Shown piece after piece: positions 2,697 through 16,077 of a DNA stretch of 25,755 nt (position 1 is the stretch's first letter; each line of letters starts with the position of its first letter). The notes below the pieces were generated by a model, which saw only the letters and a program-made list of their open reading frames with translations, was not told the origin of the DNA and did not search any database. The translations under genes were made by a program, and so were the position numbers. This stretch comes from Desulfobacterales bacterium. GTDB lineage: Bacteria; Desulfobacterota; Desulfobacteria; Desulfobacterales; UBA5852. The DNA is taken from NCBI GenBank assembly GCA_050122915.1, contig JASFIA010000001.1, forward strand, positions 1 to 25,755, in the 5' to 3' direction.

Positions 2697-2750
2697 TTTG
2701 ACCGTTTTGTGAATTGGGTTGACAATTTTTGACTGTTTGTGATTGATTCA
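2697..2750 (+). promoter_or_regulatory. Promoter and phased direct-repeat operator of the DeoR cluster
   Basis: TGA cores at 2699, 2710, 2720, 2730, 2740 (units TTTGACCGTT, TGTGAATTGG, GTTGACAATT, TTTGACTGTT, TGTGATTGAT); consensus TTGACA at 2719-2724. Confidence 0.65.
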
Positions 2751-2787
2751 GGGAAACTTCCCGAAAGCGCCTCTGAAAGAACCGGTC

Positions 2788-3609
2788 ATGGATACCAAGA
2801 ACGCTTCTGGCCTCATACCGGCACAGCGTCGCAGCCTCATTCTCGAGCTGATACGCCAAAACGGAGTCATCTCCGTCCAAGAGCTCTCCGATGTCATCGA
2901 CGTGTCTCTGTCCACCATTCGCCGTGATCTTTCCTGGCTGGCAAGGGCGGGCGCCGTGCACCGGAGCCATGGAGGCGCTGCCCTGAAGACCCGCCAGGCA
3001 ACGACATTCGAACCGTCCCATCAGGTGTCTTCACGGGTCGCTCATCGAGAAAAAGCCGCCATTGGGAAACGGGCCGTCGAGCGGTTAGAGGCCCACCAGA
3101 GCGTCATCTTCGATTCCAGTTCCACCGTATATGAGGCAGCTCTCCAGGTTGTCCGGGAGGGGTTGCCACTGACCGCAGTGACCAACGATATTCGTATCGC
3201 AGGGCTGCTTGCCGAGTGCTCGTTCATAAAGCTCATCGTGAGCGGAGGATCCCTTCGCGAGGGATCCTGTACCCTGCTGGGGGAGCCGGGGGCGACCTTT
3301 CTGCGAAGACTTCACGTGGATGTTGCCCTCATCGGCATTCATGCCATAACCGACGCCACCCTCTGCGACACCTCCACGGACGTCGCCGAGGTCAAGCACC
3401 ACATGGCGGCGGCAGCCAAGCGGGTCCTGGTACTGGCGGATGCCGCCAAGTTCAATTCCCTGGCCTTCTGTGACGCGATCGATTTGAAAGCCGTGGATGA
3501 GATCATTACCGACCAGCGGCTCGATCCCGGGAGTCGCCGACGTCTTGAGAAGCAGGGCGTTCACCTGTGCATTGCCGTTCCGGAGGCAGACGATCCCGGC
3601 TCCAGATGA
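2788..3609 (+). CDS. DeoR/GlpR-family transcriptional regulator
   Basis: N-terminal HTH (RRSLILELIRQNG..SVQELS..VS.STIRRDL..L..RSHGGA), EK.AIG..A, IFDSSSTV, TNDI, D.A.IG, LADAAKF. ATG 2788 chosen because the GTG 2743 start lies inside the operator. Confidence 0.95.
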   Translation: MDTKNASGLIPAQRRSLILELIRQNGVISVQELSDVIDVSLSTIRRDLSWLARAGAVHRSHGGAALKTRQATTFEPSHQVSSRVAHREKAAIGKRAVERLEAHQSVIFDSSSTVYEAALQVVREGLPLTAVTNDIRIAGLLAECSFIKLIVSGGSLREGSCTLLGEPGATFLRRLHVDVALIGIHAITDATLCDTSTDVAEVKHHMAAAAKRVLVLADAAKFNSLAFCDAIDLKAVDEIITDQRLDPGSRRRLEKQGVHLCIAVPEADDPGSR

Positions 3610-3703
3610 CAGTCTCACCGGTTCGTGCGGGGGCGGCCGGTTCCTAGATTCTTTGACGTCCCCGGGCTTCCGGTTCGGCGCTACCGAAAAGGAGGATCAC
3701 CCA

Positions 3704-4549
3704 TTGGCTAAAAAACTCACCCGATTCGATCTTCAGCAAATGAAGGATAACGGACGAAGGGCCGTGTGGATGACGGCCTACGATTTCATCACCGCGAAGC
3801 TGGCGGAAGAGGCCGGCATGGACATGCTGCTGGTGGGCGACAGCCTCGGAATGGCCGTTTATGGCTATTCCGGCACCGTGCCCGTCACCATGGAACAGTG
3901 CATCTATCACACCGAAGCCGTGCGTCGAGCTGCGCCCGGCACCTTCGTGATCGGGGACATGCCCTTCGGGGCCTACCAGACCGGTGTCACGGATGCCTGC
4001 CGCAACGCCATCCGTTTTCACAAGGAAGCCGGTGTCGACTGCATCAAACTGGAAGGCGGCACTCGGGTGTCCGCAATCATCAGGGCGATCTCCGATGGCG
4101 GTATGCTGGTCATGGGCCATGTCGGGTTGACCCCTCAGAGCTCTGCCGCCATGGGCGGCTTCAGGGCCCAGGGGCGAACGGTTGACAGCGCTCGCGCCAT
4201 TATTGAAGATGCCAAGGCCGTCTGCGGCGCCGGGGCTTTTTCCGTGCTCGTAGAAGGGGTGCCGCCGGAAGTCACGGAGGTCATCCGGCGCGAGATTCCC
4301 ATCCCGGTGTACGGGATCGGGGCCGGTGACTGCGACGGCCAAGTCATGATCTGTTCGGACATTCTTGGACTATTCCAGGCGTTCACCCCAAAATTCGTCA
4401 AGCGATACGGAAACCTGGCGGAGGAATACCTGAAGGTGTTCACCGCATACGCGGATGACGTTCGAAGCGGAAAATTCCCCGGCGAATCTCACGTTTACCG
4501 CATGGCGGAGGGAGAAGCCGCAAAACTATCCCAAGAATGGAAACGATGA
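3704..4549 (+). CDS. panB: 3-methyl-2-oxobutanoate hydroxymethyltransferase (PanB/KPHMT family), possibly catabolic paralog
   Basis: TAYD, LLVGDSLGM, GDMPF, IKLEGG, GHVGLTPQ, GIGAG..DGQV, PKFVKRY; TTG start 3704 with AGGAGG RBS. Confidence 0.93.
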   Translation: MAKKLTRFDLQQMKDNGRRAVWMTAYDFITAKLAEEAGMDMLLVGDSLGMAVYGYSGTVPVTMEQCIYHTEAVRRAAPGTFVIGDMPFGAYQTGVTDACRNAIRFHKEAGVDCIKLEGGTRVSAIIRAISDGGMLVMGHVGLTPQSSAAMGGFRAQGRTVDSARAIIEDAKAVCGAGAFSVLVEGVPPEVTEVIRREIPIPVYGIGAGDCDGQVMICSDILGLFQAFTPKFVKRYGNLAEEYLKVFTAYADDVRSGKFPGESHVYRMAEGEAAKLSQEWKR

Positions 4550-5859
4550 CCATGGCCGACAGAGCCTTTTCCCTTGGATACGGAAAGGGGCGGATGGCGT
4601 TCGCCATCCCCGAGACCCATCTTCTCTACGAGCTGGTGGGTCGAAACCGCAGACCGCCCGCCGACCTGCCGACAGCCTACCGGCATGCCCTGGAACACCC
4701 CGTCGACAGCCCGCCCCTGAGGGAGATCGTCCGGCCGGGCGAGACCGTCGCCATCACAGTGAGCGACATCACCCGTGGGTGGCAGCGGAATCCCCTCACT
4801 CTGCCCATTCTCGTCGATTGCCTGAACGAGGCGGGGGTTTCCGACGATGACATCACCGTGATCATCGCCGTCGGCGCTCATCGGCAGAATACCCGCGACG
4901 AGGTCGTCGAACTCTGCAGCGAGGCGGTCTGCCACCGGGTGCGGGTCGTCAACCATGACGCCTGGGACTCGGCCAACATGGTCTCCTTCGGGAAAACGAG
5001 CCGGGGGACCGAGGTGGCTCTCAGTCGTATCGCCGTTGAGGCGGACCGGCTGATTCTGACCGGCGGTGTCATCTACCATTACATGGTGGGGTACGGGGGC
5101 GGACGCAAAAGCGTCATGCCGGGCGTCGCCTCCCTTAAAACCATCCAGCAGTGCCACATGTGGGCCATGGCCGGTGAGGTTGGAAAGGGCTCCAACCCCC
5201 TGGCAGCCAACATGAAAACCCGGGGCAACCCCGCTCACGAGGACATGATGGAGGTGGCGGCCTTTATCCAGCCCGACTTCATCGTCAACGTGGTGCCGAA
5301 CCTGGACGGTGACATCACCGGCATTTTTGCCGGGAACTGGGTGTCGGCCTGGTGGGAGGCAACGCGAATGGTCGACGGGATTTTCGGGGTGCCCATCAGG
5401 GAGCGGGCCGATATTGTCATCGCCTCGACCGGTGGCTATCCGAAGGACATCAACCTCTACCAGACACAGAAAACCATCGACAACGCCGTCTATGCTATGA
5501 AACCGGGGGGGGCGGCGATCATTCTGGCGGAGTGTCCCGACATCATGGAGCCCAGGGAGTTTTTCGACTGGTTCAACCATCCGTCGGCCCTGCAGTTGGA
5601 ACAAGCGGTCAGGGACCATTTTCTCATTTCCGGCTGGGTGGCCGTCCGCCAGCTGGAGTACTGCCAACAGGGCACCATTATTCTCGTGACGGAGGAGAAA
5701 AACCTTGAATTGGCGCGGCGGGCGGGGGTCATTCCGGTCACTACTACGGCGGAGGCCCTGCAATTGGCCTACGACAGCTGCGGCGCCGATCCCCCCAGTG
5801 TTACAGTCATGCCCCAGGGGGCGAACACTTTTCCCATCCTCGAGCCGACACCGGCCTGA
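4546..5859 (+). CDS. larA: LarA-family nickel-pincer-nucleotide racemase/epimerase (paralog 1)
   Basis: SDITR, AVGAHR, HYMVGYGGGRKSVMPG, downstream His (QQCH), DINLYQTQK, GGAAIILAEC; ATGA overlap with the panB stop. Confidence 0.9.
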   Translation: MTMADRAFSLGYGKGRMAFAIPETHLLYELVGRNRRPPADLPTAYRHALEHPVDSPPLREIVRPGETVAITVSDITRGWQRNPLTLPILVDCLNEAGVSDDDITVIIAVGAHRQNTRDEVVELCSEAVCHRVRVVNHDAWDSANMVSFGKTSRGTEVALSRIAVEADRLILTGGVIYHYMVGYGGGRKSVMPGVASLKTIQQCHMWAMAGEVGKGSNPLAANMKTRGNPAHEDMMEVAAFIQPDFIVNVVPNLDGDITGIFAGNWVSAWWEATRMVDGIFGVPIRERADIVIASTGGYPKDINLYQTQKTIDNAVYAMKPGGAAIILAECPDIMEPREFFDWFNHPSALQLEQAVRDHFLISGWVAVRQLEYCQQGTIILVTEEKNLELARRAGVIPVTTTAEALQLAYDSCGADPPSVTVMPQGANTFPILEPTPA

Positions 5860-5923
5860 TGATGGGGCGGATTACCGTGAGCGTTTTCCCGAACCCCAAA
5901 CCACTCAGGACAAGGAGGAATTC

Positions 5924-6928
5924 ATGGGCAAGCGAATGGCAGCAGCAGTGATTCTGGCAGTGACCCTGGCGCTGATGGCGGTGCCGGCATTGGCGGCGAC
6001 CGTCCTCAAACTGGGAACCTCAACCCAACCCTCCCACATCTACAACGTGGCGGCTGAACACTTTGCCAAGATCGTTGCCGAGAAATCCAATGGAGCCCTT
6101 GAGGTTCAGGTGTTCCCGGCAGCCCAGCTGGGCTCCGAGCGGGACATGGTGGAGGGACTTCAGTTGGGATCCCTTGAAATGACCCTGACCTCCACCGGCC
6201 CGTTGGGCAACTTCGTCCCCCAGGTCAAGCTGTTCAATCTTCCCTTTCTCTTCAAGGACCGGGAGACCTGCTACAAGGTGTTGGACGGCCCGGTCGGCAC
6301 ATCGATCGCCGACAAGTTTCCGGCGGTGGGTATCCGTTCTCTGGGCTGGTTTGAAAACGGGTTTCGAAACGTCACCAACTCCAAGCGGGCCATCATGGCT
6401 CCCACCGACATGGACGGCCTGAAAATCAGGGTGATGGAGGATGACGTCTTCATCCTGACCATGAAATCCCTGGGTGCCAGCCCCCTGCCCATGGCTTTTG
6501 GAGAGCTCTACACCGCACTGGAGCAGAAGACCGTCGATGCCCAGGAAAACCCTCTGGCCGTCATTCATTCCTCACGGTTCTTCGAGGTTCAGAAGTATTT
6601 GGCCATGACCGGTCATTTTTATTCGCCGGCGATGCTTCTCATCAGTGAAATCACCTGGAAGTCCCTGTCGCCCGAGCACCAGAGCATCATCACCGACGCC
6701 GCCGCTCAGGCGAGGGATTTCGAGCGGAAAATTTCCCTCGAGGCCGATCAGAAACTCGAAGCGGAGCTGAAGGCGGCGGGTATGACGGTCACCCATCCGG
6801 ACAAAACGCCTTTTGTCGAGGCGGTTGCAGGCGTCTACGAAAACCCCTCCGTGCTGAAGGCCATAGGCGGGGGGGATGCGGCGGAGGGACAAAAATTGAT
6901 CGAGGCCGTCCGCAACGCATCGAACTAA
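5924..6928 (+). CDS. dctP: TRAP transporter periplasmic solute-binding protein (DctP family)
   Basis: Signal peptide (..AVPALA), QLGSERDMVEGLQLG, LFNLPFLF, GLKIRVM, MAFGELYTALEQKTVDAQENP; AAGGAGG RBS. Confidence 0.95.
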   Translation: MGKRMAAAVILAVTLALMAVPALAATVLKLGTSTQPSHIYNVAAEHFAKIVAEKSNGALEVQVFPAAQLGSERDMVEGLQLGSLEMTLTSTGPLGNFVPQVKLFNLPFLFKDRETCYKVLDGPVGTSIADKFPAVGIRSLGWFENGFRNVTNSKRAIMAPTDMDGLKIRVMEDDVFILTMKSLGASPLPMAFGELYTALEQKTVDAQENPLAVIHSSRFFEVQKYLAMTGHFYSPAMLLISEITWKSLSPEHQSIITDAAAQARDFERKISLEADQKLEAELKAAGMTVTHPDKTPFVEAVAGVYENPSVLKAIGGGDAAEGQKLIEAVRNASN

Positions 6929-6964
6929 TTCCCATCACGCTATGTCAGCATGACAGCGCAGATA

Positions 6965-6996
6965 CCGGTCCAGACCGAATCCTACGGCTGGACCGG
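6965..6996 (+). other. Intercistronic stem-loop after dctP, probable mRNA-stabilising structure
   Basis: ccggtccag (6965-6973) pairs with ctggaccgg (6988-6996), with an inner ccg/cgg stem; no U-tract. Confidence 0.45.
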
Positions 6997-7044
6997 CGAT
7001 GCGAGCCGATGGGTTTCACCTTTTGCGATCGGGAACCTTGACCC

Positions 7045-7533
7045 ATGCAAACCCTTCTGTCGTGGATGGACCGAATGATCAATTGGGCGCTGGCGGTCCT
7101 GATGGCTGCCATGGTGGTGGTCATCGCTGCTCAGGTCTGGTACCGATTCGTCTTAAACGATCCCTTATCCTGGTCTGAGGAACTGGGGCGCTATCTCTTT
7201 GTCTGGATTTCTTTTATGGGGGCCGCCGCCGGCGTCCGTTACCAGGTGCATCTGGGGATCGATCTGCTCCAGAAGGTCCTGCCCCCCAATGCCTACAGGA
7301 TCATGGTCATCCTGATGAACGTCATCATTCAGGTGTTTCTGGTGACCGTCATCTACTGGGGATTCAAGATCCTGGGGATCATCCGGTTTCAGACCAGCGC
7401 CTCGATGAATGTCTCCATGCTCTATCCCTACCTGGCCGTACCGGTTGGGTGCATTTTCATGCTGATCAATTCCTTGAGGGTATCCGCCGCCGCCTTCCGG
7501 GGCCGTCGTCTGGACCGGGAGGTGATTCTATGA
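7045..7533 (+). CDS. dctQ: TRAP transporter small permease
   Basis: Four hydrophobic segments; QVWYRFVLNDPLSWSEELGRYLFVWISFMGAA, HLGID. Confidence 0.93.
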   Translation: MQTLLSWMDRMINWALAVLMAAMVVVIAAQVWYRFVLNDPLSWSEELGRYLFVWISFMGAAAGVRYQVHLGIDLLQKVLPPNAYRIMVILMNVIIQVFLVTVIYWGFKILGIIRFQTSASMNVSMLYPYLAVPVGCIFMLINSLRVSAAAFRGRRLDREVIL

Positions 7534-8807
7534 CCGTCATTCTGTTCGCCGTCCTCCTTATCTGCTTCGTTGTGGGCATGCCCATCGCCTTTTCCCTCGG
7601 GGTGGCTTCGGTGGCCACCCTCCAGTTCGGTTCCAATCTGCCACTGACCCTCGCGGCACAGCGCCTCTTCACGGGCACCGACTCCTTTCCCCTGATGGCG
7701 ATCCCCTTTTTCATGCTGGCCGGCGAGCTGATGGAGTCCGGAGGGATTTCTCGGCGGCTATTTGATTTCGCCCATGCCCTGGTGGGATTCGTTTTTGGCG
7801 GACTGGCGATGGTAGCGGTGGTCGCGGCCATGTTCTTCGCGGGCATCTCCGGCGCCGCTGCGGCCGACACCGCAGCGGTCGGAGCGGTATCTATCCCGGC
7901 CATGATCCGAAACGGCTACCAGAAAGGATTTGCCGCCGCCGTTCAGGCGGCGGGGGGGTCCATCGGTGTCATCATTCCTCCCTCCATACCCATGATTATC
8001 TTTGGCGTGGTGGGCGGCGTTTCCATCGGCAAGATGTTTATGGGCGGGTTTATCCCCGGCGCCTTGATCGGCGGTGGACTCATGCTCACCAGCTATTTCA
8101 TGGCCAGAAGGGCCGGCTATCGGAAAGAATCCTTCCTGGGATTTCGGCAAATCGTGCGGACCTTTTTGGGGGCGATTTGGGCCCTGCTCATGCCCATCAT
8201 CATTCTGGGGGGGATTCTTGGAGGCATTTTCACGCCCACGGAGGCGGCGGTGGTGGCCGCCCTCTATGGTCTTGCCGTGGGGTTCTTCATCTATAGAGAA
8301 CTCCGGATTAAGGATCTTCCCCGCATCTTCGCCAAGGCGGCCATCTCTACCTCCACGGTGATGCTGCTCATCGCCACCGCCAACATCTTCGGCTGGATTT
8401 TGACCGCGGAGCGGGTGCCCCAGAACGTCGCCGCCTATCTGGTGACCCTCACGGCTTCCAAGCACGTCCTTTATGCCTTGATCCTGGCCTGTCTCCTCGT
8501 GGTGGGAACCTTTATGGAGACATCGGCGTCCCTCATCATTCTGACCCCTGTCTTCCTGCCGGTGGTAGAACAGTTCGGGATCGATCCGGTCCACTTTGGC
8601 GTAATCATGGTGACGGCTCTGGCCATCGGCATGCTGACGCCGCCCCTGGGCATCTGTCTTTTCATATCGTGCAACATCGCTAGGATCGAACTCTCGGAGA
8701 TCATCCGATTTATTTTGCCCTTTCTGGCCATTATGATCGGCCTGCTGGTGCTGATGACCTACGTTCCCGAAATTATTCTTTTCGTCCCTAATCTCTTAGG
8801 AGAATAA
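7530..8807 (+). CDS. dctM: TRAP transporter large permease
   Basis: FPLMAIPFFMLAGELM, FAGISGAAAAD, IIPPSIPMI, GIFTPTEAA, DPVHFG, GMLTPPLG; ATGA overlap with dctQ. Confidence 0.96.
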   Translation: MTVILFAVLLICFVVGMPIAFSLGVASVATLQFGSNLPLTLAAQRLFTGTDSFPLMAIPFFMLAGELMESGGISRRLFDFAHALVGFVFGGLAMVAVVAAMFFAGISGAAAADTAAVGAVSIPAMIRNGYQKGFAAAVQAAGGSIGVIIPPSIPMIIFGVVGGVSIGKMFMGGFIPGALIGGGLMLTSYFMARRAGYRKESFLGFRQIVRTFLGAIWALLMPIIILGGILGGIFTPTEAAVVAALYGLAVGFFIYRELRIKDLPRIFAKAAISTSTVMLLIATANIFGWILTAERVPQNVAAYLVTLTASKHVLYALILACLLVVGTFMETSASLIILTPVFLPVVEQFGIDPVHFGVIMVTALAIGMLTPPLGICLFISCNIARIELSEIIRFILPFLAIMIGLLVLMTYVPEIILFVPNLLGE

Positions 8808-8812
8808 CCCCT

Positions 8813-10087
8813 ATGCCCCAGGTCACCTTCCCATTCGGTGGTGAAAGCCTGTCCGTCGATGTTCCGGACCGAAATCTGGCTGAAGTGTTGGCCCCCAAGC
8901 CTTCGAGATCCATCGACGACCTGCCGGCGGCCATTTCGGCTGCCCTCGACAGCCCCATCGACCAACCGCGGCTTGAGGAGTGGGTTCACTCCAGCGACAG
9001 GGTGCTGATCGTCAGCGACGACATTACCCGTTTGACGCCCTGCGATCGCATCATTCCGCCCCTGCTCGACCGGTTGAATGCTGCCGGGGTGCCGGACGAT
9101 CGGATTTCTTGCATCATGGCCCTGGGAACCCACCGATACATGACCGAGTCCGAGATGGTTCAAAAAGTCGGAGAAACGGTTTGCCGGCGGATTCTCGTCT
9201 TCAATCACGAATGGCGGGATCCGAAGGCTCTGGCGGACCTGGGTGCCTCCGAGCAGGGCACGCCGCTGGTGGTAAACCGGGCGGCGGTGGAGGCGGAAGT
9301 CGTCATTGGATTGGGGGCAATCGTTCCTCACCACATCCCGGGTTTTTCCGGTTCCTCCAAGATTATCCAGCCAGGTATCAGCGGCTCCCGGACCACAGCG
9401 GAAACCCATCTGCTATCCTGCGGCGGCGGCGGGGACTCCTTTCTTGGCGCCGAGGACAATCCGGTGCGTCGGGACATGGACGAGATGGCCGATCGGGTCG
9501 GGATGAAAACCATTTTCAACGTGGTCATGGACAGTCAGGGGGCTGTGGTAGGCGTCTTTTTCGGAGAGATGCGCGGCGCATTCCGGAAGGGGGTGGAACT
9601 GGCCAGGGAGATCTACGGCATCCCCTATCGCGAAGTGCCCGATGTGGTGATCGCCAATGCTTATCCTTGCGAGCTCGATTTCTGGCAGTCCCACAAGGCC
9701 CAGTATCCGGCCCAGCGGATGATCCGTCCCGGCGGCACTATCATCGTCTGCACGCCGGCGCCGGAAGGGGTGAGCCCTGTGCACACGGAACTGCTTGAAT
9801 TTACGGCATGGTCTTCCACGGATATCAAAGCGGCCTATCGGAAAGGCCGGATTTCCAACGGGGTGGCCTGCGCACTGGCCGTCGCATGGGCCATGGTGAG
9901 GGAAAAGGCATCTGTCATTCTTTTTTCTCCAGGCATCCCGGAACCGGACAAGCGCCGGTTGGGGCACACCCACGCACCATCCCTGGAATGGGCGATGGCG
10001 GAAGCCATTCGCCGGCAGGGCAGGGATGCACGGATCTCCGTGCTGACCCATGCCCCGGATATGCTGCCCATTGGCCCGATGGCTTGA
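8813..10087 (+). CDS. larA: LarA-family nickel-pincer-nucleotide racemase/epimerase (paralog 2)
   Basis: SDDITR.TP, ALGTHR, PHHIPGFSGSSKIIQPG, AETH, LDFWQSHK, PGGTII..TPAPEG. Confidence 0.9.
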   Translation: MPQVTFPFGGESLSVDVPDRNLAEVLAPKPSRSIDDLPAAISAALDSPIDQPRLEEWVHSSDRVLIVSDDITRLTPCDRIIPPLLDRLNAAGVPDDRISCIMALGTHRYMTESEMVQKVGETVCRRILVFNHEWRDPKALADLGASEQGTPLVVNRAAVEAEVVIGLGAIVPHHIPGFSGSSKIIQPGISGSRTTAETHLLSCGGGGDSFLGAEDNPVRRDMDEMADRVGMKTIFNVVMDSQGAVVGVFFGEMRGAFRKGVELAREIYGIPYREVPDVVIANAYPCELDFWQSHKAQYPAQRMIRPGGTIIVCTPAPEGVSPVHTELLEFTAWSSTDIKAAYRKGRISNGVACALAVAWAMVREKASVILFSPGIPEPDKRRLGHTHAPSLEWAMAEAIRRQGRDARISVLTHAPDMLPIGPMA

Positions 10088-10108: not shown

Positions 10109-11386
10109 GTGAACGATAACAATATCCATGTGGCGGTTGTGGCCGATGACCTGACCGGTGCGGCCGACACCGGCGTTCAATTCTGTTCCGTTGCGGAGCC
10201 GTTTGATCTGCTGCCGTGGCAGCCCCGGGAGTGGTCCGGCGGCTTCTCCGGGGCAGTGAAGGGTTTGGCCGTTTTTACCAACTCCCGGCACGATTCACCC
10301 CCAGCAGCCGCTCGCAAAGTGCGTCGGGTTGCCGATCTCATCAGGAGGCATGCCCCCAGGGTCGTCTACAAAAAAATCGACTCCTGTCTGAGGGGCAATC
10401 TCGGTTCTGAAATCGATGCGCTCCTTGAGTCCCTTGAGTGCCCGGTGAGTTTCATCGCCCCGGCGCTGCCCGGTCAGGAGCGGACCACGGAAAACGACGT
10501 TCATCGGGTTCGAGGCGTCCCCGTGGCGGAGAGCGAGATCGCCCTCGACCCCCTTTGCCCGGTATCGGAGTCCCGGCTGTCCCGGCTGCTGGCCGCCCAG
10601 AGCCGGTATCCTGTCGGGCGGGTGGGGCTGGAGGATGTCGCCGCCGGCTCGGAGCGGCTTCGGGCGGCCATCGGTTCCCGGATGGCCGAGGGGTGCCGGC
10701 ATATCGCTTTCGATGCCACCGAAACCGTCCATCTGGATGCCATCGCAGCCGCAGCCACCCGGTTTTTTACAGGCGCCCTTTTGGTCGGATCCGCCGGTCT
10801 TGCCGCCAGCCAGGCGTCCTGGCTGGGAGAAAAGACCCGGACATTGGCGTCACTCCCTACCCGGCGACTTCAGCGGATGCTTTGGGTTTGCGGGTCGGCA
10901 ACGACGGTGTCGCTCCGTCAGGCGGAGGCGCTCAGGGACCGTTCGGTGGTCGCCCCGATCGTCTTGCCGGCAGCCATGCTGGCTGATGCCGAGAGCGCAT
11001 CGGGTCGGAAAGGGTTTGTCGATCAAGTGATCGCCGGCTGGTCCCAGGGGGTTCGGATGATTTTGATCGAGCCCCTCGGAAAGGGGCCACATGCTGATCC
11101 AGCACTGGTGGTTGCCGGGCTCGGGGCGATTGTGGCCGATATCGTCCGCCTCACGTCGCCGGAAGGCCTGTTTTTGACCGGAGGCGATACCGCCGAGGCT
11201 GTCTGGCGCTGCCTCGGGGCTGCCGCCATCCGCCTTGAAGGAGAGGTCTTGCCTGGCGTGATTCGAGGGCGCTGGATTGGAGGCGCCATGAACGGCGGGA
11301 CAGTGATCACCAAGGCCGGGGCCTTCGGCGACCCGGAAACCCTGTTAAATCTCTATAGCCAATCCGTGAGAGGGGTGACGCAATGA
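10109..11386 (+). CDS. Four-carbon acid-sugar kinase (DUF1537/DUF1357; DtnK/DenK type)
   Basis: ADDLTGAADTG, YKKIDSCLRGNLGSE, PALP..ERTT, LTGGDTA, ITKAGAFG; adjacent to pdxA; GTG start. Confidence 0.9.
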   Translation: MNDNNIHVAVVADDLTGAADTGVQFCSVAEPFDLLPWQPREWSGGFSGAVKGLAVFTNSRHDSPPAAARKVRRVADLIRRHAPRVVYKKIDSCLRGNLGSEIDALLESLECPVSFIAPALPGQERTTENDVHRVRGVPVAESEIALDPLCPVSESRLSRLLAAQSRYPVGRVGLEDVAAGSERLRAAIGSRMAEGCRHIAFDATETVHLDAIAAAATRFFTGALLVGSAGLAASQASWLGEKTRTLASLPTRRLQRMLWVCGSATTVSLRQAEALRDRSVVAPIVLPAAMLADAESASGRKGFVDQVIAGWSQGVRMILIEPLGKGPHADPALVVAGLGAIVADIVRLTSPEGLFLTGGDTAEAVWRCLGAAAIRLEGEVLPGVIRGRWIGGAMNGGTVITKAGAFGDPETLLNLYSQSVRGVTQ

Positions 11387-12411
11387 GCACAGGCCACCGT
11401 CCGATTCTGGGCATAACCATGGGAGATCCCGGAGGGATCGGCCCTGAAATTTGCGCCAAAGCACTCAGGGACGATGCCATCTACGATATCTGCCGCCCCC
11501 TCGTTGTCGGTGATGCCGGCGTTATGGGTAATGCCGTGGACTTCTGCGGGCTGGGACTCGATGTCTACTCGGTGGTGAACCCCACTGACGGGGCTTACCG
11601 CAAGGGACGAATCGACGTCCTGGACTTGACCAACATGCCGATGGCCGAGCTACGGCATAAGACAGTGACCCCGCTCCAGGGCAAGGCATCCTTCGAGTAC
11701 ATCGCGCGGGCGATCGCCCTGGCCCTTGCCGGTGACATCGACGGCACGGTGACGGGACCGATCAACAAGGCCTCCATCAACGCAGCCGGGTTCCATTACG
11801 CCGGTCACACCGAGATCTACGCCCATCTCACCCGAACCCGGGACTACTCCATGATGTTGGTCGAAGGGGGGTTCCGGGTCACCCACGTGTCCACCCATGT
11901 CTCATTGAGGGAGGCCTGCGATCGGGTGAAGAAGGAGCGGGTAGAGACGGTTGTCGACCTCACCCATGACGCCTTGACCCGCCTGGGTATTCCCAGGCCG
12001 CGAATCGCCGTTGCCGGCCTCAATCCCCACTGCGGGGAAGGGGGGCTCTTTGGAACCGAGGACGACCGGGAGATCGCCCCGGCAGTGGCGGCGGCCCGAG
12101 AAAAGGGACGGCTGGTCCAGGGGCCTCTACCGGCCGACACCGTGTTCTCGAAAATGCGGGGAGGCATGTTCGACGCCGTGGTGGTCATGTATCATGACCA
12201 GGGCCATATCCCCACGAAGCTGGTGGGCTTCCAGTACGACGACAACACCGGCACATGGGGCCAGATGGCGGGCGTCAACGTCACCCTGGGACTCCCCATC
12301 ATCCGCACTTCCGTGGATCACGGCACCGCCTTTGGAAAGGCCGGTGAGGGCCGTGCCAACCCCCAGTCCATGATCGAAGCGGTTAAGCTTGCCGCCCGAA
12401 TGGCCCAGTGA
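11383..12411 (+). CDS. pdxA: PdxA-family dehydrogenase, PdxA2 type (4-phospho-D-threonate/erythronate 3-dehydrogenase, decarboxylating)
   Basis: GITMGDPGGIGPE, TGPINK, GHTE, LNPHCGE, MYHDQGHIP, VNVTLGLPIIRTSVDHGTAF; ATGA overlap with the kinase stop. Confidence 0.93.
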   Translation: MSTGHRPILGITMGDPGGIGPEICAKALRDDAIYDICRPLVVGDAGVMGNAVDFCGLGLDVYSVVNPTDGAYRKGRIDVLDLTNMPMAELRHKTVTPLQGKASFEYIARAIALALAGDIDGTVTGPINKASINAAGFHYAGHTEIYAHLTRTRDYSMMLVEGGFRVTHVSTHVSLREACDRVKKERVETVVDLTHDALTRLGIPRPRIAVAGLNPHCGEGGLFGTEDDREIAPAVAAAREKGRLVQGPLPADTVFSKMRGGMFDAVVVMYHDQGHIPTKLVGFQYDDNTGTWGQMAGVNVTLGLPIIRTSVDHGTAFGKAGEGRANPQSMIEAVKLAARMAQ

Positions 12412-12446
12412 AAAGCCGACGTGGCCCGCATTACAGGGGAGACACC

Positions 12447-14114
12447 ATGCGCAGCCGGAACATCCTAAGCCGCCCGGAATGGAGCATCAACCGGGCCTAC
12501 TACAAATCCATGGGTTACACGGATCTGGATCTCGACCGTCCCCTTATCGGCATCGCCAATGCATGGAGTACGACCGTGCCCGGCCACATCAACTTGAGAC
12601 AAGTGGCCGAATCCGTGAAGGCCGGTATCTGGAGCACTGGCGGAACTCCTGTGGAATTCGGCGTGATCGGTGCCTGCGACGGCATCGCCGAAGGTCACGC
12701 GGGAATGAGATACATCCTCCCCACCAGGGATGTCATCGCCGACAGTATCGAACTCATGGTTCAGGCCCATCAGTATGATGGTGTGGTTTTGCTGGGTTCC
12801 TGCGATAAAATCGTACCGGGTATGCTTATGGCCGCCGCCCGGCTTGATCTTCCGGCCATCCTGGTCAATGGCGGACCGATGTTGGGGGGGCCAGAGATTG
12901 CCGGCCGGATCTCGGATTCCACTTCCATTATCGAAGCCGTGGGTCGCCTAAAAAAGGGGGAAATTACCGAGGCGGATCTGGCCGGCATGGAGGATGCCTG
13001 TGCACCCACCTGCGGTTCCTGCTCCTTTCTTGGAACCGCCAACACGATGGGATGCATTGCAGAGGCACTGGGCATGTCTCTTACCGGAAGTGCAGTGATT
13101 CCAGCCACCCACGCCCGTCGCATGCACGTGGCCCAGGCCAGCGGCCGGGCCATCACGAGACTGGTCAAGGACGGTGTCGGCGCCCGACAGATTCTTACCG
13201 GCGAGGCCATCGAAAACGCCGTTCGCCTCACTGCCGCCATCGGCGGGTCCACCAACGCGGCCCTTCATATCCCGGCTATTGCCTACGAAGCCCACGTTGC
13301 ATTCGATATCGGGATGTTCGACAGGATCAGTCGGACAACGCCCCTGATCGCCAAGATGAACCCTGCCGCCGCCGTCAATGTGATCGATTTTTACGCTTCC
13401 GGCGGCGTGCCTGCGGTCATGGCGGAGCTGATGCCTCTGCTCAACACAGAGGCTCTGACGGTAACCGGAATGACCATGGGGGAAAATCTGGCCGGCTGCC
13501 GTTCCCCGAACGATGCGGTGATCCGAACCCTCGAAGCGCCCTTCAGTGCCACCGGGGGACTGGCGGTTCTCTACGGGAGCCTCGCCCCCCAGTCGGCCGT
13601 GACGAAACCGGCGGCCATTCGAAGCGACATGTTGATCTTTTCCGGACCGGCCAGGGTCTTCGACTCAGAGCAGCAGGCCAACACGGCCATCCTGCAAGGA
13701 GCGGTGATACCGGGGGACGTTGTGGTGATCCGCTATGAGGGGCCCAAAGGAGGGCCGGGAATGCCCGAGATGTTCAAGGCCATGAAGTTGATACACGGCT
13801 TGGGACTGTCCGATCGGGTCGCCCTCGTCACCGACGGCCGGTTTTCAGGAACCAACAATGGGTGCTGCGTCGGCCATATCTCTCCGGAGGCCATGGAGGG
13901 TGGCCCCATTGCCCTGGTGCAAGACGGCGACACCATCACCATCGACATCCCCGGCAAACGACTTGATTTGACGGTATCGGAAGCCGACCTCGATGCCCGC
14001 CGCTCCCGGTGGGAGCGGCCGGCGCCCCGGGTCTCGGAGGGCTACCTTTACCTCTACAGTCGACTGGCCGAGTCTGCCGACAAGGGAGCCATTATCCGAA
14101 ACCGGGCCGGTTGA
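12447..14114 (+). CDS. ilvD: IlvD/Edd-family Fe-S dehydratase (dihydroxy-acid or sugar-acid dehydratase)
   Basis: PGH..L, CDGIA.GH.GM, GSCDKIVPG, CGSCSFLGTANTM, GGSTNA, RYEGPKGGPGMPEM, TDGRFSG, GHISPE; ATG 12447 follows a GGGGAG RBS. Family is secure, substrate is not. Confidence 0.88.
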   Translation: MRSRNILSRPEWSINRAYYKSMGYTDLDLDRPLIGIANAWSTTVPGHINLRQVAESVKAGIWSTGGTPVEFGVIGACDGIAEGHAGMRYILPTRDVIADSIELMVQAHQYDGVVLLGSCDKIVPGMLMAAARLDLPAILVNGGPMLGGPEIAGRISDSTSIIEAVGRLKKGEITEADLAGMEDACAPTCGSCSFLGTANTMGCIAEALGMSLTGSAVIPATHARRMHVAQASGRAITRLVKDGVGARQILTGEAIENAVRLTAAIGGSTNAALHIPAIAYEAHVAFDIGMFDRISRTTPLIAKMNPAAAVNVIDFYASGGVPAVMAELMPLLNTEALTVTGMTMGENLAGCRSPNDAVIRTLEAPFSATGGLAVLYGSLAPQSAVTKPAAIRSDMLIFSGPARVFDSEQQANTAILQGAVIPGDVVVIRYEGPKGGPGMPEMFKAMKLIHGLGLSDRVALVTDGRFSGTNNGCCVGHISPEAMEGGPIALVQDGDTITIDIPGKRLDLTVSEADLDARRSRWERPAPRVSEGYLYLYSRLAESADKGAIIRNRAG

Positions 14115-14304: not shown

Positions 14305-16077
14305 ATGGGCCGACCCGTCGCCGTTGCCATCGCCGTTCTGTGGATGGTTATTTGTTTCTCCACCCGTGCCATCGAAGCAGGCGTCCCTCCGGCAGACGTG
14401 ATTCTATACAACGGCCGGATTCACACAATGAACGATCGTCAGCGCCAGGCGGCCATGATTGCCGTGGTCGGGGATCGCATCGTCCATGTGGGAGGGGCGG
14501 GGGATGTGGACCGGTGGCGGGGGGACGCCACCCAACTGATCGATCTCGAGGGCCGAACCGTGATCCCGGGACTGATCGAAAGCCACGGGCATCTCCTCGC
14601 ACTGGGGCGTTCTCGAATGATTTTGGATCTAAGCGGGGCCCATAACTTTGACGACCTCGTCCGGCGGGTGGCATCGGCGGTTGAGGCAACCCCTTCCGGG
14701 CAATGGATCCTTGGGGCGGGATGGCATCAGAGCAAATGGGATCCGCCGCCGGATCCGGCGGTCAACGGGTTCCCTGTCCATCGCGTCCTGAGCCAGGTCA
14801 GTCCGTCTCATCCGGTGTTTCTTACCCATGCAAGCGGTCACGCCGGACTGGCCAACGCCATGGCCATAGCCCTTGCGGGCATTACGCCCCATACCGTGGT
14901 CGACGGCGATGGAGAAATCATTCGGGAGCCAGACGGAACGCCCACGGGCGTCTTTACCGAGCGTGCACAGGAGCTGATCCGCCGGGCCATACCCGAGGCC
15001 ACGCCGGAGCGGAATCGACAGGCCCTCTCCCTGGCCATTTCAGAGGCCCTCGAAAACGGGATCACGAGCTTCAGGGATGCCGGCTCCAGCAGGGAGGATA
15101 TCGACCGATACCGATCCTTCTTGTCCGAAGGCCGCCTGGGGGTGAGGGTATGGGTGATGGTGGACGGGAGTGACAGCGATCTGGTGGAGGAATGGTTGGA
15201 ACGGGGGCCCGAGATCGACTCGGGGAACCGATTCCTGACCATTCGGGCCTTCAAGCTGTTTGCCGATGGGGCCCTGGGTTCCCGGGGCGCATGGCTTCTG
15301 TCTCCTTACGCCGACCGGCCCGAGCACTCGGGCCACAGCCTGATCGCCATGGAAGACCTTTATCGACTCTCGGCGGCCGCATTGAGGAGGGGGTTTCAGC
15401 TCTGCGTCCATGCCATCGGAGACCGGGCCAACCGGGAGGTGTTGAACCAGTTCGAGCGCGCCTTCACATCTTATCCCGCCAATTCACAAGACCACCGTTT
15501 CCGGATCGAGCACGCCCAGCACATCGATCCCTCGGATATCCCGCGTTTTGCCAGGATGGGGGTGATCGCCTCGGTTCAAGGAATTCATTTCTCTTCGGAT
15601 CGACCCTGGGCCATCGACCGCTTGGGCAGGGACCGAATCAGTGACGGGGCCTATCCATGGCAATCGCTATTGGCTTCGGGGGCTGTGGTGGTCAACGGTA
15701 CGGATGCCCCGGTGGAGCCCATAAATCCCATCGCCTCCTTCTACGCGTCGGTTACCCGGAAAACCCTCGACGGTCGACCCCAGAACGGTTTCGAGCCTTA
15801 CCAGCGGATGAGCCGTCATCAGGCTTTGAAGGCCTATACCCTGGATGCGGCCTTTGCCGGATTCGAGGACTCGGTCAAGGGATCCATCGAGGTCGGAAAG
15901 CTGGCGGATTTCACCGTGCTTTCCCGGGACATCATGACCATTGCCGAGGACAGGATTCTCGGCACACGGGTCGAGATGACCATTATCGGGGGGCGTGTGG
16001 CCTATTCCAGGGCGGAGCGACGAGGGGCTTCCGTCGCCCCCACGCCGTCGACATCGAGGGTTACGAGATATCCATGA
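14305..16077 (+). CDS. Exported metal-dependent amidohydrolase (amidohydrolase_3 / YtcJ-like)
   Basis: Signal-peptide-like N-terminus; NGRIHTM, DLEGRTVIPGLIESHGH, KLFADGALGSRGA, HAIGDRA, RIEHAQ, GTDAPVE, KGSIEVGKLADF. Confidence 0.9.
   Translation: MGRPVAVAIAVLWMVICFSTRAIEAGVPPADVILYNGRIHTMNDRQRQAAMIAVVGDRIVHVGGAGDVDRWRGDATQLIDLEGRTVIPGLIESHGHLLALGRSRMILDLSGAHNFDDLVRRVASAVEATPSGQWILGAGWHQSKWDPPPDPAVNGFPVHRVLSQVSPSHPVFLTHASGHAGLANAMAIALAGITPHTVVDGDGEIIREPDGTPTGVFTERAQELIRRAIPEATPERNRQALSLAISEALENGITSFRDAGSSREDIDRYRSFLSEGRLGVRVWVMVDGSDSDLVEEWLERGPEIDSGNRFLTIRAFKLFADGALGSRGAWLLSPYADRPEHSGHSLIAMEDLYRLSAAALRRGFQLCVHAIGDRANREVLNQFERAFTSYPANSQDHRFRIEHAQHIDPSDIPRFARMGVIASVQGIHFSSDRPWAIDRLGRDRISDGAYPWQSLLASGAVVVNGTDAPVEPINPIASFYASVTRKTLDGRPQNGFEPYQRMSRHQALKAYTLDAAFAGFEDSVKGSIEVGKLADFTVLSRDIMTIAEDRILGTRVEMTIIGGRVAYSRAERRGASVAPTPSTSRVTRYP

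Follow-up and report, generated by a model that had tools for sequence, protein, structure and literature searches.

The two LarA genes of the operon analyzed here are markers of two separable modules, not a duplicated pair. We propose, with a probability of about 0.5, that they encode two non-redundant NPN-dependent C2 epimerases, each serving one separable branch of a pathway for imported tetronates. The proposal builds on what is established: both proteins belong to the LarA family and keep their catalytic residues, the genome has the cofactor genes, the paralogs are deeply divergent and two syntenies are conserved. The window, i.e., the whole stretch of DNA that was analyzed, spans 25,755 nucleotides from a Desulfobacterales bacterium.

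Gene Array and Genomic Context

The array is co-directional, in the order DeoR, PanB, LarA-1, TRAP, LarA-2, DUF1537 kinase, PdxA2 and IlvD (Table 1), and the DeoR gene upstream of the cluster is also kept in relatives. Both LarA reading frames are intact, in agreement with the original prediction of two paralogs in one operon. LarA-1 has an alternative ATG at 4546, overlapping the PanB stop as ATGA, and an AGGAGA ribosome-binding site lies upstream of LarA-2. The true start of the PanB paralog is probably near 3704, as the longest ORF seems to begin with 69 spurious residues at its N-terminus; the longest ORF for DctP runs from 5705, with the signal peptide beginning at Met 5924.

Table 1. Genes of the array, with positions in the window
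Feature	Position	Strand	Remarks
DeoR-family regulator	2743..3609	+	first gene of the array; Pfam HTH_DeoR and DeoRC
PanB (ketopantoate hydroxymethyltransferase) paralog	3497..4549	+	longest ORF; PF02548, 329 bits
LarA-1	4537..5859	+	Lar_N and LarA_C; predicted NPN-dependent LarA family member
TRAP solute-binding protein DctP	5924..6928	+	PF03480; signal-peptide-like N-terminus
TRAP small permease DctQ	7045..7533	+	PF04290
TRAP large permease DctM	7449..8807	+	PF06808, 420 bits
LarA-2	8813..10087	+	Lar_N, 192 bits; predicted NPN-dependent LarA family member
DUF1537 four-carbon acid-sugar kinase, DtnK-like	10109..11386	+	SBD_N and NBD_C
PdxA2-type decarboxylating dehydrogenase	11383..12411	+	PF04166
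IlvD/Edd dehydratase paralog	12408..14114	+	TIGR00110, 674 bits; not the housekeeping copy

The PdxA of the operon was closest to 6e85, a D-threonate 4-phosphate dehydrogenase (282 bits), and scored 267 bits with Salmonella PdxA2 (2hi1) and 188 bits with E. coli PdxA. The kinase gave 221 bits with the D-threonate kinase model and 111 bits with that for 3-oxo-tetronate kinase, both under the cut-off. PanB and IlvD both passed the equivalog models of their biosynthetic counterparts (for PanB, 285 bits with TIGR00222 vs a cut-off of 207). The genome has another IlvD on contig C52, which scored 787 bits with TIGR00110 vs 674 for the operon copy, and both families are multi-copy in carrier genomes (6 PanB and 3 IlvD in G002, 4 and 4 in G001). 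The genes larE, larB and larC adjoin on contig C27 (C27:5094-7948), each above its cut-off, and a third LarA of the genome, on contig C195, passed the model for the malate racemase LarAH5 with 550 bits.

By its sequence, the TRAP binder is nearest to solved, presumed D-erythronate/pantoate binders. Its best solved relatives, at 37–43% identity, are 4p9k/4pak, 4pdh, 4pdd, 4p47 and 4nq8, which are probably entries of the pantoate/erythronate-bound TRAP set; the ligands of these structures had co-purified, a point that weakens the transporter evidence. Surveyed TRAP binding-protein structures have been reported with pantoate or erythronate bound (PMC11668362; see also PMC5812351), and the nearest solved binders also take (R)-pantoate (PMC5812351).

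Two Deeply Divergent LarA Proteins

Both proteins matched the Pfam Lar_N domain (E = 1.5e-63, 214 bits, for LarA-1; E = 1.1e-56 for LarA-2), with a LarA_C match in LarA-1 only, and both aligned over their full length to the solved LarA and Mar2 structures. Their mutual identity is 30%. Residues R75/H108/H174/K184/H200/Q295/K298 of L. plantarum LarA correspond to R80/H115/H181/K191/H207/Q309/K312 in LarA-1 and to R73/H107/H173/K183/H199/Q292/K295 in LarA-2, including the two catalytic histidines (L. plantarum H108 and H174; H115/H181 and H107/H173 here). In LarA, Lys184 tethers the cofactor, His200 is a nickel ligand, and Arg75, Gln295 and Lys298 bind the carboxylate/NPN. All seven positions were invariant among the orthologs of LarA-1 (n = 18) and of LarA-2 (n = 27). 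Since the catalytic and NPN residues are kept, larE–larB–larC are present and both genes are under purifying selection (dN/dS 0.10–0.14), LarA activity is plausible; as originally suggested, both are probably active NPN enzymes.

The motifs quoted in the original prediction were all recovered: DITR and the downstream His in both proteins, GAHR in LarA-1 vs GTHR in LarA-2, and the divergent H-Y-M, GGGRK and LYQTQK of LarA-1 vs H-H-I, GSSK and FWQSHK of LarA-2. The H-F-F and GGRK given there for L. plantarum LarA were correct, as judged from the alignment to 5HUQ. That the duplication is not recent was borne out by the tree, where the paralogs, separated by about 2.9 substitutions per site, fell in different clades with 100% support. 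The LarA-1 clade (support 100/97) is sister to the LarAH10 group of Negativicutes LarAH10-type proteins, and the LarA-2 clade (100/99) has no name. LarA-1 passed NF052525 (LarAH10, cut-off 540) with 594 bits, while LarA-2 failed with 280 bits and, like its Sporomusa and Bacillota orthologs, stayed under every NCBIfam LarA subfamily cut-off.

The anticipated difference at the substrate site was apparent, with pockets of Y, M, W and V in LarA-1 (Y182/M183/W367/V368) vs H, I, A and L in LarA-2. The LarA-1 pocket is small and LAR-like, with Trp at the W358 position in 18/18 clade members; its clade-specific hydrogen-bonding residues, Q83, N118 and Y182, are neutral donors or acceptors. The LarA-2 pocket is wider and basic (H174, R219, H294), with Ala at the W358 position. 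H174, I175, R219, W291, H294 and A354/L355 are invariant in the LarA-2 clade, R219 aligning to an Arg of the malate racemase Mar2.

LarAH10 of Megasphaera elsdenii (PMC7583248, PMC11770544) resembles LarA-1 not only in model match and sister clade, but also in its catalytic residues and a Met at the F176 position. However, LarA-1 is just 37–49% identical to the Negativicutes LarAH10-type proteins, which have V/I, H and L/P in place of Q83, N118 and Y182. At the W358 position, the 44 Negativicutes proteins carry F (38) or Y (6), a feature associated with a roomy hydrophobic pocket in LarAH10 (PMC11770544) and not matched by the Trp of the LarA-1 clade.

Mar2/LarAH6 of Thermoanaerobacterium thermosaccharolyticum (PDB 6D6Z) was the best solved relative of both LarA-1 and LarA-2 (229 and 164 bits, respectively, with single sequences; 288 and 284 with family profiles). 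Nevertheless, the malate racemase models were rejected: the best scores were 360 bits for LarA-1 and 289 for LarA-2, far under the cut-offs of 500 (NF052593, LarAH6) and 462 (NF052595, LarAH5), and at the W358/T359 positions, where malate racemases carry the H/Q-K pair, LarA-1 has W-V and LarA-2 has A-L. Nor do malate racemases share the linkage of LarA-2 to a kinase and PdxA2. Lactate racemase proper (NF033504) was also rejected (297 and 246 bits vs 460), its F, F, W, E/Q pocket matching neither protein.

Conserved Neighborhoods

The analysis covered 61 loci in which the sequence continued for 4 kb or more to both sides of a LarA-2 homolog. A PdxA2-type PdxA lay no more than 4 kb away in 49 of them, and at least 42 had the kinase, a number that rises at a looser coverage threshold. 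Three gene orders were seen, and the loci come from Desulfobacterota, Negativicutes, Acidobacteriota, Spirochaetes and Chloroflexota. The commonest module order is LarA2-kinase-PdxA; the orders K-LarA2-PdxA, K-PdxA-LarA2 and LarA2-PdxA place LarA-2 and PdxA side by side. At L020, L028, L048, L049 and L054, tblastn found no kinase, and a Pfam scan of the flanking ORFs at L054 gave none either.

Counting only orthologs with enough flanking DNA, PanB adjoined LarA-1 in 26/26 cases found via LarA-2 and in 4/4 found independently (L142, L144, L148, L149); the neighborhood often includes an IlvD paralog as well. The modules also occur apart. They are divergent in Dethiosulfatarculus (L037/L146), and LarA-2/kinase/PdxA stands without the other module at L018, L027, L041, L043 and L057. 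PanB-LarA-1 occurs alone, with no dehydratase nearby, at L144, L148 and L149, and PanB-IlvD-TRAP occurs without any LarA at L145, where the binding protein is likewise nearest the D-erythronate/pantoate type. In Sporomusa, an Fe-ADH lies between PanB and LarA-1.

Among 40 sampled Negativicutes LarAH10-family loci, 37 had no other gene of the cluster within 8 kb, and the remaining three had the LarA-2 module a few kb off; PanB was found in 0/40 and an IlvD homolog in one (L113). Because these loci are without PanB, and mostly without the cluster genes, LarA-1, always found beside PanB, represents a distinct sub-clade.

The original prediction linked both paralogs to tetronates. For LarA-2 the link is strong, given the cross-phylum synteny with a DtnK-like kinase and PdxA2 and the operon's TRAP binder, nearest to the D-erythronate/pantoate type; any tie of LarA-1 to tetronates would be indirect, by way of PanB/IlvD and of the operon that the two paralogs share.

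A Possible Two-Branch Pathway

In branch B, formed by LarA-2, the DUF1537 kinase and PdxA2, LarA-2 would interconvert D-erythronate and D-threonate, as free acids or as 4-phosphates; one kinase/dehydrogenase pair would then take both C2 epimers to DHAP and CO2. Zhang et al. (PNAS, 2016) reportedly described D-threonate/D-erythronate catabolism by DUF1537 kinases (DtnK/DenK) and PdxA2. Such pathways, summarized in PMC13753588, use the same kinase and PdxA2-type pair that adjoins LarA-2, with the same expected products, but they have no epimerase, employ a separate kinase/dehydrogenase pair for each epimer and include no PanB or IlvD branch.

A functional precedent for an NPN-dependent C2 epimerase feeding kinase-based catabolism is offered by the D-gluconate 2-epimerases GntE1/GntE2 (LarAH19/20), whose role on aldonic acids was first predicted from genomic context (PMC7583248). 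These enzymes belong, however, to other LarA groups (the hexonate model gave 20–78 bits here vs a cut-off of 500), have an E, V, A, H pocket and act on six-carbon substrates. We found no published tetronate 2-epimerase in the literature, and the 2020 LarA genomic-context tables list the PdxA, DUF1537 and PanB COGs under no LarA group.

For branch A, composed of the PanB paralog, LarA-1 and the IlvD paralog, we infer the chemistry as well as the substrates and directions. The substrate of LarA-1 would be a small, neutral hydroxy acid, in the likeliest case a 2S tetronate, whose C2 the enzyme would invert to give the 2R acid; the IlvD-type dehydratase would turn this acid into 4-hydroxy-2-oxobutanoate, which the PanB paralog, working in reverse, would split into pyruvate and methylene-THF. 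Glycerate, 2,4-dihydroxybutyrate and 2,3-dihydroxybutyrates are further substrates of lactate racemases with pockets like that of LarA-1 (PMC11770544). IlvD-family or other dehydratases are reported to act on L-threonate and D-threonate, the conversion of D-threonate to 2-oxo-4-hydroxybutyrate having been shown (PMC10079672).

Several observations count against this scheme. Where PanB-LarA-1 has no dehydratase nearby, the 2-oxo acid for PanB needs another source, and the operon's PanB and IlvD score as biosynthetic equivalogs. D-erythronate and L-threonate, the tetronates commonly met, are both 2R, so a 2R-specific dehydratase needs no epimerase for either; and if both branches use the D pair, one reversible epimerase is enough. 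Finally, the LarA-1 pocket is fairly hydrophobic and NCBIfam files the protein with LarAH10, a group whose characterized enzyme, called a "hydrophobic 2-hydroxy acid racemase", is weak and promiscuous (PMC11770544).

Alternative Substrate Assignments

The original prediction gave one paralog to each stereochemical series. In this special case of the modular model, LarA-2 would act on D-erythronate/D-threonate and LarA-1 on L-erythronate/L-threonate, all as free acids, and the operon would use all four tetronate stereoisomers. This is possible but doubtful: no observation assigns one paralog to the D and the other to the L series. Other splits accord with the data no less well, namely free acid vs 4-phosphate, a 2S-to-2R supply for the dehydratase, or a non-tetronate substrate for LarA-1. 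The specificity of PdxA2/DtnK-type enzymes for the 3R (D) series, which is established and is also reflected in the names of the matching models and structures, ties LarA-2 to the D pair, and the conservation of two non-redundant epimerases speaks for a separate substrate pair for each. Yet the conserved partner of LarA-1 is PanB, with or without IlvD, and no L-series-specific enzyme is tied to it. L-threonate is already 2R, which would leave LarA-1 needed for the rare L-erythronate only, and LarA-1 is nonetheless PanB's tightest partner. Judging by the binder of the LarA-less PanB-IlvD-TRAP module, moreover, D-erythronate is no less likely a substrate for branch A. On the other hand, L-threonate dehydratases are known (PMC10079672), and branch A would then be supplied by turning L-erythronate into L-threonate.

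A division by phosphorylation state, with LarA-1 acting on free tetronates (e.g., D-threonate to D-erythronate) for the dehydratase and PanB, and LarA-2 placed between kinase and PdxA2 to convert 4-phospho-D-erythronate to 4-phospho-D-threonate, seems unlikely. It would agree with PdxA, more than the kinase, being the tightest partner of LarA-2 (49 vs 42 of the 61 loci) and directly abutting it in three gene orders, as well as with the five loci where the kinase went undetected. The invariant basic residues of LarA-2 fit too, R219 matching the Arg of Mar2, which acts on a substrate with a distal anion, as do the neutral clade-specific residues of LarA-1. But the commonest order, LarA2-kinase-PdxA, equally fits action before the kinase. 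PdxA-family enzymes for 4-phospho-D-erythronate exist (EC 1.1.1.409), and an epimerase at that level is thus not obligatory. Furthermore, the characterized LarA substrates are all unphosphorylated (PMC7583248, PMC11770544).

Also unlikely is that LarA-2 alone works on tetronates and LarA-1 racemizes a 2,4-dihydroxy or branched 2-hydroxy acid akin to the usual substrates of PanB and IlvD (pantoate, 2,4-dihydroxybutanoate or 2,3-dihydroxyisovalerate), with a stereospecific dehydrogenase or IlvD handing the product to PanB. PanB and IlvD do score as genuine family members, PanB-LarA-1 pairs without a dehydratase exist, and the Fe-ADH of Sporomusa lies between the two genes. Moreover, LarA-1 belongs to a LarAH10-type lineage, and LarAH10, which also takes 2,4-dihydroxybutyrate, is the only tested homolog that racemizes 2,3-dihydroxyisovalerate and 2-hydroxy-3,3-dimethylbutyrate (PMC11770544); the closest solved binding proteins bind (R)-pantoate too (PMC5812351). 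However, natural pantoate and dihydroxyisovalerate are single enantiomers, leaving no obvious role for a racemase, and IlvD cannot dehydrate pantoate. The Trp at the W358 position implies a small pocket, unlike the F/Y of LarAH10, and DeoR/TRAP control together with a better-scoring housekeeping IlvD argues for catabolism of imported sugar acids.

That the neighborhood is incidental and one or both proteins are lactate, malate or promiscuous "hydrophobic 2-hydroxy acid" racemases, as suggested by the source annotation of homologs ("nickel-dependent lactate racemase"), the NF052525 score of LarA-1 and the malate racemases as best, though sub-threshold, models for LarA-2, is very improbable, because both score far under the lactate racemase cut-off and lack the malate H/Q-K and lactate F-F pairs (as defined in PMC11770544), a bona fide LarAH5 malate racemase is already present elsewhere in the genome, the syntenies persist across phyla and gene orders, and 37/40 Negativicutes LarAH10-family loci are without the cluster's other genes.

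Our preferred reading, two epimerases for two separable branches, leaves LarA-2 acting on free acids or on 4-phosphates. If the division by phosphorylation state were true, LarA-2 would be the first known NPN enzyme to act on a phosphorylated substrate.

Gene Array and LarA Family Membership

Both LarA genes encode clear members of the LarA family (Pfam Lar_N), and the two proteins could be aligned over their full length with the solved lactate and malate racemases. The genes lie in a tight co-directional array that runs from a DeoR regulator to an IlvD paralogue, as listed below. The PanB stop codon and the LarA-1 ATG at 4546 overlap as ATGA, and an AGGAGA site is found 8 bases 5' of the LarA-2 ATG.

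Genes of the array, with positions in the window
Feature	Position	Strand	Lar_N E-value
DeoR regulator	2743-3609	+	
PanB paralogue	end 4549	+	
LarA-1	4537 or 4546 to 5859	+	1.5e-63
TRAP DctP, DctQ, DctM	5924-8807	+	
LarA-2	8813-10087	+	1.1e-56
DUF1537 kinase	10109-11386	+	
PdxA-family dehydrogenase	11383-12411	+	
IlvD/Edd dehydratase	12408-14114	+	

A scan of the array for promoters and terminators revealed no usable internal operon boundary. Just 5' of DeoR there is a sigma-70-like promoter match (window 2698-2726), in a region where the number of matches was no higher than in shuffled sequence. On the other side, IlvD is followed by an Amidohydro_3 gene (window 14305-16077) which probably lies outside the cluster, because its position is kept only in the closest relative (locus L012).

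The source genome (G000) is a MAG of 2.9 Mb, 70% complete, and its LarA-2 is 92% identical to that of the closest relative in the genome collection, an uncultured Desulfobacteraceae MAG. The larE, larB and larC genes for the nickel-pincer cofactor, all scoring above the model cut-offs, are adjacent on contig C27 (5094-7948), separate from all three larA genes of this genome. The third LarA homologue (contig C195, 2622-3914, minus strand; L003:838-2130) scores 550 bits with the LarAH5 malate racemase model (cut-off 462), so the organism is predicted to have at least three functionally distinct nickel-pincer enzymes.

LarA-1 and LarA-2 are 30% identical. The motifs quoted for both in the original prediction are all present, and those given for the L. 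plantarum enzyme proved correct upon alignment. The equivalents of L. plantarum R75, H108, H174, K184, H200, Q295 and K298 are invariant in 18 LarA-1 and 27 LarA-2 orthologues, and dN/dS values of 0.10-0.14 for the two genes indicate purifying selection.

In a maximum-likelihood tree of 91 LarA sequences, the LarA-2 homologues form one clade (support 100/99) and the LarA-1 homologues their own (100/97), which is sister to LarAH10-type proteins of the Negativicutes (99/94); about 2.9 substitutions per site separate the two lineages. LarA-1 scores just over the NCBIfam LarAH10 cut-off (594 vs 540), and LarA-2 falls under every NCBIfam LarA subfamily cut-off, and so do the orthologues found in Sporomusa and in a Bacillota MAG. 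Judging from these sequences, the two proteins are old lineages and no duplicated pair; the earlier argument against a recent duplication is upheld by the separate clades and the distance between them.

LarA-2 Accompanies a Probable Tetronate Kinase/Dehydrogenase Pair

We mapped the window proteins onto 80 genome loci around LarA-2 homologues, taking counts over the 61 that reach 4 kb or more beyond the homologue in both directions. A PdxA gene was present within 4 kb of the LarA-2 homologue in 49 of the 61 and a DUF1537 kinase in 42, further kinases appearing at a looser threshold; LarA-1 was found in only 23. The module shows three gene orders and occurs in Desulfobacterota, Negativicutes, Acidobacteriota, Spirochaetes, Chloroflexota and others. 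No kinase was detected at the LarA-2 loci L020, L028, L048, L049 and L054.

At L054 (8601-12369, from a Desulfobacterales MAG), LarA-2 is followed directly by PdxA, with a GatZ/KbaZ-like gene and TRAP genes (Pfam) divergent upstream; L020 has the same LarA-2/PdxA order and also a divergent TRAP (by tblastn only). In Candidatus Thiosymbion oneisti (L011/L024), LarA-2 and the DUF1537 kinase are separated by an insertion of roughly 6 kb that carries unrelated genes (AAA ATPase, S8 peptidase, SLFN/AlbA_2, Uma2).

The PdxA protein of the window is of the PdxA2 type, scoring 282 bits against the D-threonate 4-phosphate dehydrogenase structure, 267 against Salmonella PdxA2 and 188 against E. coli PdxA. 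The kinase gave 221 bits with the D-threonate kinase model and 111 with the 3-oxo-tetronate kinase model, both below cut-off. In the work of Zhang et al. in 2016, such a kinase/PdxA2 pair reportedly takes D-threonate or D-erythronate, via the 4-phosphate, to DHAP and CO2. A related 2-oxo/3-oxo-tetronate route from the same work is summarised in PMC13753588. D-Erythronate (2R,3R) and D-threonate (2S,3R) (PMC13753588, PMC10079672) differ at C2 alone, which is the carbon inverted by LarA enzymes.

We infer that LarA-2 is most likely the C2 epimerase of this D-erythronate/D-threonate pair; its action would let one kinase/PdxA2 pair take both epimers. The link to tetronates, as originally predicted for both paralogues, is well supported for LarA-2 by the kinase/PdxA2 synteny and only indirectly supported for LarA-1. 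A D-apionate route, with ApnO as the PdxA-family enzyme, was discarded, ApnO being KARI-like and not PdxA-like (PMC13753588).

LarA-1 Belongs to a Separable PanB/IlvD Module

PanB adjoins all 26 LarA-1 orthologues (at least 55% identity) in the LarA-2 locus set and is also found beside four independently found orthologues (L142, L144, L148, L149), with IlvD as a frequent but inconstant third member. In Dethiosulfatarculus (L037/L146), IlvD-LarA1-PanB is divergent from DctPQM-LarA2-kinase-PdxA; LarA2-kinase-PdxA occurs by itself in several genomes, and PanB-LarA1 by itself in others. A further locus of Dethiosulfatarculus sandiegensis (L145; G002:C11:147000-160000) carries GntR-PanB-IlvD-DctPQM without any LarA. 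On this evidence of gene order, each LarA paralogue marks its own, separable module.

The window IlvD is a second copy, scoring 674 bits against 787 for the IlvD on contig C52 of the same genome. Among carrier genomes, PanB reaches six copies and IlvD four; D. sandiegensis has 6 and 3, respectively.

Sporomusa silvacetica contains a 30-kb island (L142/L143; G001:C1:731000-761000) with IlvD-PanB-PanB-FeADH-LarA1-MFS, a PocR sensor kinase, a DHDPS-family aldolase, a further IlvD and a sigma-54 activator followed by DUF1537 kinase-IlvD-like-PanB-MFS-SDR. The kinase of this island is partnered with IlvD/PanB, not with PdxA.

Of the 121 Negativicutes genomes sampled, 87 carry the LarAH10 family, taken broadly, and a single genome can hold as many as four copies; two or three of its genes stand in tandem at L122, L123 and L124 (Negativicutes G116, G053 and G080). 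A link of the whole family to PanB/IlvD was rejected, since 37 of 40 sampled Negativicutes loci had no other cluster genes within 8 kb. PanB was found at none of the 40 and an IlvD homologue at one, while the LarA-2/kinase/PdxA module lay a few kb off in three. LarA-1 proteins with a PanB neighbour therefore make up a sub-clade of their own, and the family label tells little of LarA-1 function. For its closest characterised relative, LarAH10, we know of no convincing native substrate.

The TRAP binding protein of the window is 37-43% identical to its best solved relatives (4p9k/4pak, 4pdh, 4pdd and 4nq8), which we take to be pantoate or erythronate binders. At L145, the PanB-IlvD module that lacks LarA has a binding protein with the same best PDB matches as the window DctP (4nq8, 4pdh, 4p9k, 4pdd). 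Pantoate and D-erythronate are among the TRAP binding protein ligands in published surveys (PMC5812351), and a set of structures with bound pantoate or erythronate has been described (PMC11668362).

LarA-1 most likely serves this PanB/IlvD branch, for which we propose the following chemistry and substrates. C2 of a 2S tetronate would be inverted by LarA-1, and the IlvD paralogue would dehydrate the product, giving 4-hydroxy-2-oxobutanoate; dehydratases for L- and D-threonate have been reported (PMC10079672). The PanB paralogue would then catalyze a reverse hydroxymethyl transfer, yielding pyruvate and methylene-THF. Under such chemistry, and under few others, the two-enzyme module at L145, with its own transporter, is self-sufficient.

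Substrate Pockets and Competing Readings

The pocket for the C-alpha substituent is shaped by the residue pair that follows the second catalytic His and by residues on two central helices, among them those at the L. plantarum W358 and T359 positions (PMC11851776, PMC11770544). We compared these residues through profile alignments to 5HUQ and 6D6Z.

Pocket residues by group (L. plantarum positions)
Group	F175	F176	W358	T359
LarA-1 clade	Y	M	W	V
LarAH10-type (Negativicutes)	L or P	M or F	F or Y	V or I
LarA-2 clade	H	I	A (helix register uncertain by one residue)	L (helix register uncertain by one residue)

Q83 and N118 are clade-specific in LarA-1. In LarA-2, R219, W291 and H294 are invariant and the Arg preceding the cofactor Lys is lost. 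As far as these residues can tell, the LarA-1 pocket is small, resembling that of lactate racemases; enzymes of the latter kind accept glycerate, 2,4-dihydroxybutyrate and 2,3-dihydroxybutyrates as well (PMC11770544). The LarA-2 pocket is predicted to be basic and wider, and would suit either a polyol or a negatively charged group, phosphate for example.

A division by state, free acid versus 4-phosphate, competes with one by stereochemical series. The basic pocket, the loci with no detected kinase and the very close pairing of LarA2 with PdxA favour 4-phosphates as LarA-2 substrates, whereas the known substrates of the family and the commonest gene order favour free acids. That LarA-2 is a 4-phospho-D-erythronate/4-phospho-D-threonate 2-epimerase, and that LarA-1, PanB and IlvD also form a hitherto undescribed, folate-linked route for tetronates in anaerobes, is a combination we consider unlikely.

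For LarA-1, one competing possibility is that it supplies a 2R substrate from either series; another is a non-tetronate substrate, for instance 2,4-dihydroxybutanoate or an acid resembling pantoate. Pantoate is kept as part of this last reading. Its catabolism as the sole function is not our main reading, as pantoate lacks the 3-OH for IlvD/PdxA2 and natural pantoate needs no racemase. The assignment of one paralogue to each of the D and L series found no direct support, and two points speak against it: L-threonate is already 2R, and the binding protein of the PanB-IlvD module is of the D-erythronate/pantoate type.

Implications

The name 'lactate racemase', now on both genes, is contradicted by the present evidence. 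To our knowledge, about half of the LarA superfamily is without an assigned substrate. A search of the accessible literature found no threonate, erythronate or tetronate (2-)epimerase, and nothing joining DUF1537 with DUF2088 or PanB with 4-hydroxy-2-oxobutanoate. Associations with PdxA, DUF1537 and PanB are absent from the accessible portion of the 2020 LarA genomic-context tables, and the tetronates tested in the 2024 LarA substrate survey were 4-deoxy forms only. The superfamily and the core pathway are known; the predicted substrates and the combination are new.

Conserved synteny gives two unassigned LarA clades concrete candidate substrates, tetronates or their 4-phosphates. Set against the published tetronate pathways, the logic would be new: one epimerase with one kinase/dehydrogenase pair in place of an enzyme pair per epimer. 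If the phosphate reading were true, LarA-2 would give the nickel-pincer enzymes their first known phosphorylated substrate. The folate-linked route, if real, would lead from a tetronate through 4-hydroxy-2-oxobutanoate to pyruvate and methylene-THF, with the C1 unit passing directly to the Wood-Ljungdahl/folate pool. Paralogues of PanB and IlvD, enzymes of vitamin B5 and branched-chain amino acid metabolism, may be reused catabolically in sulfate reducers and acetogens.
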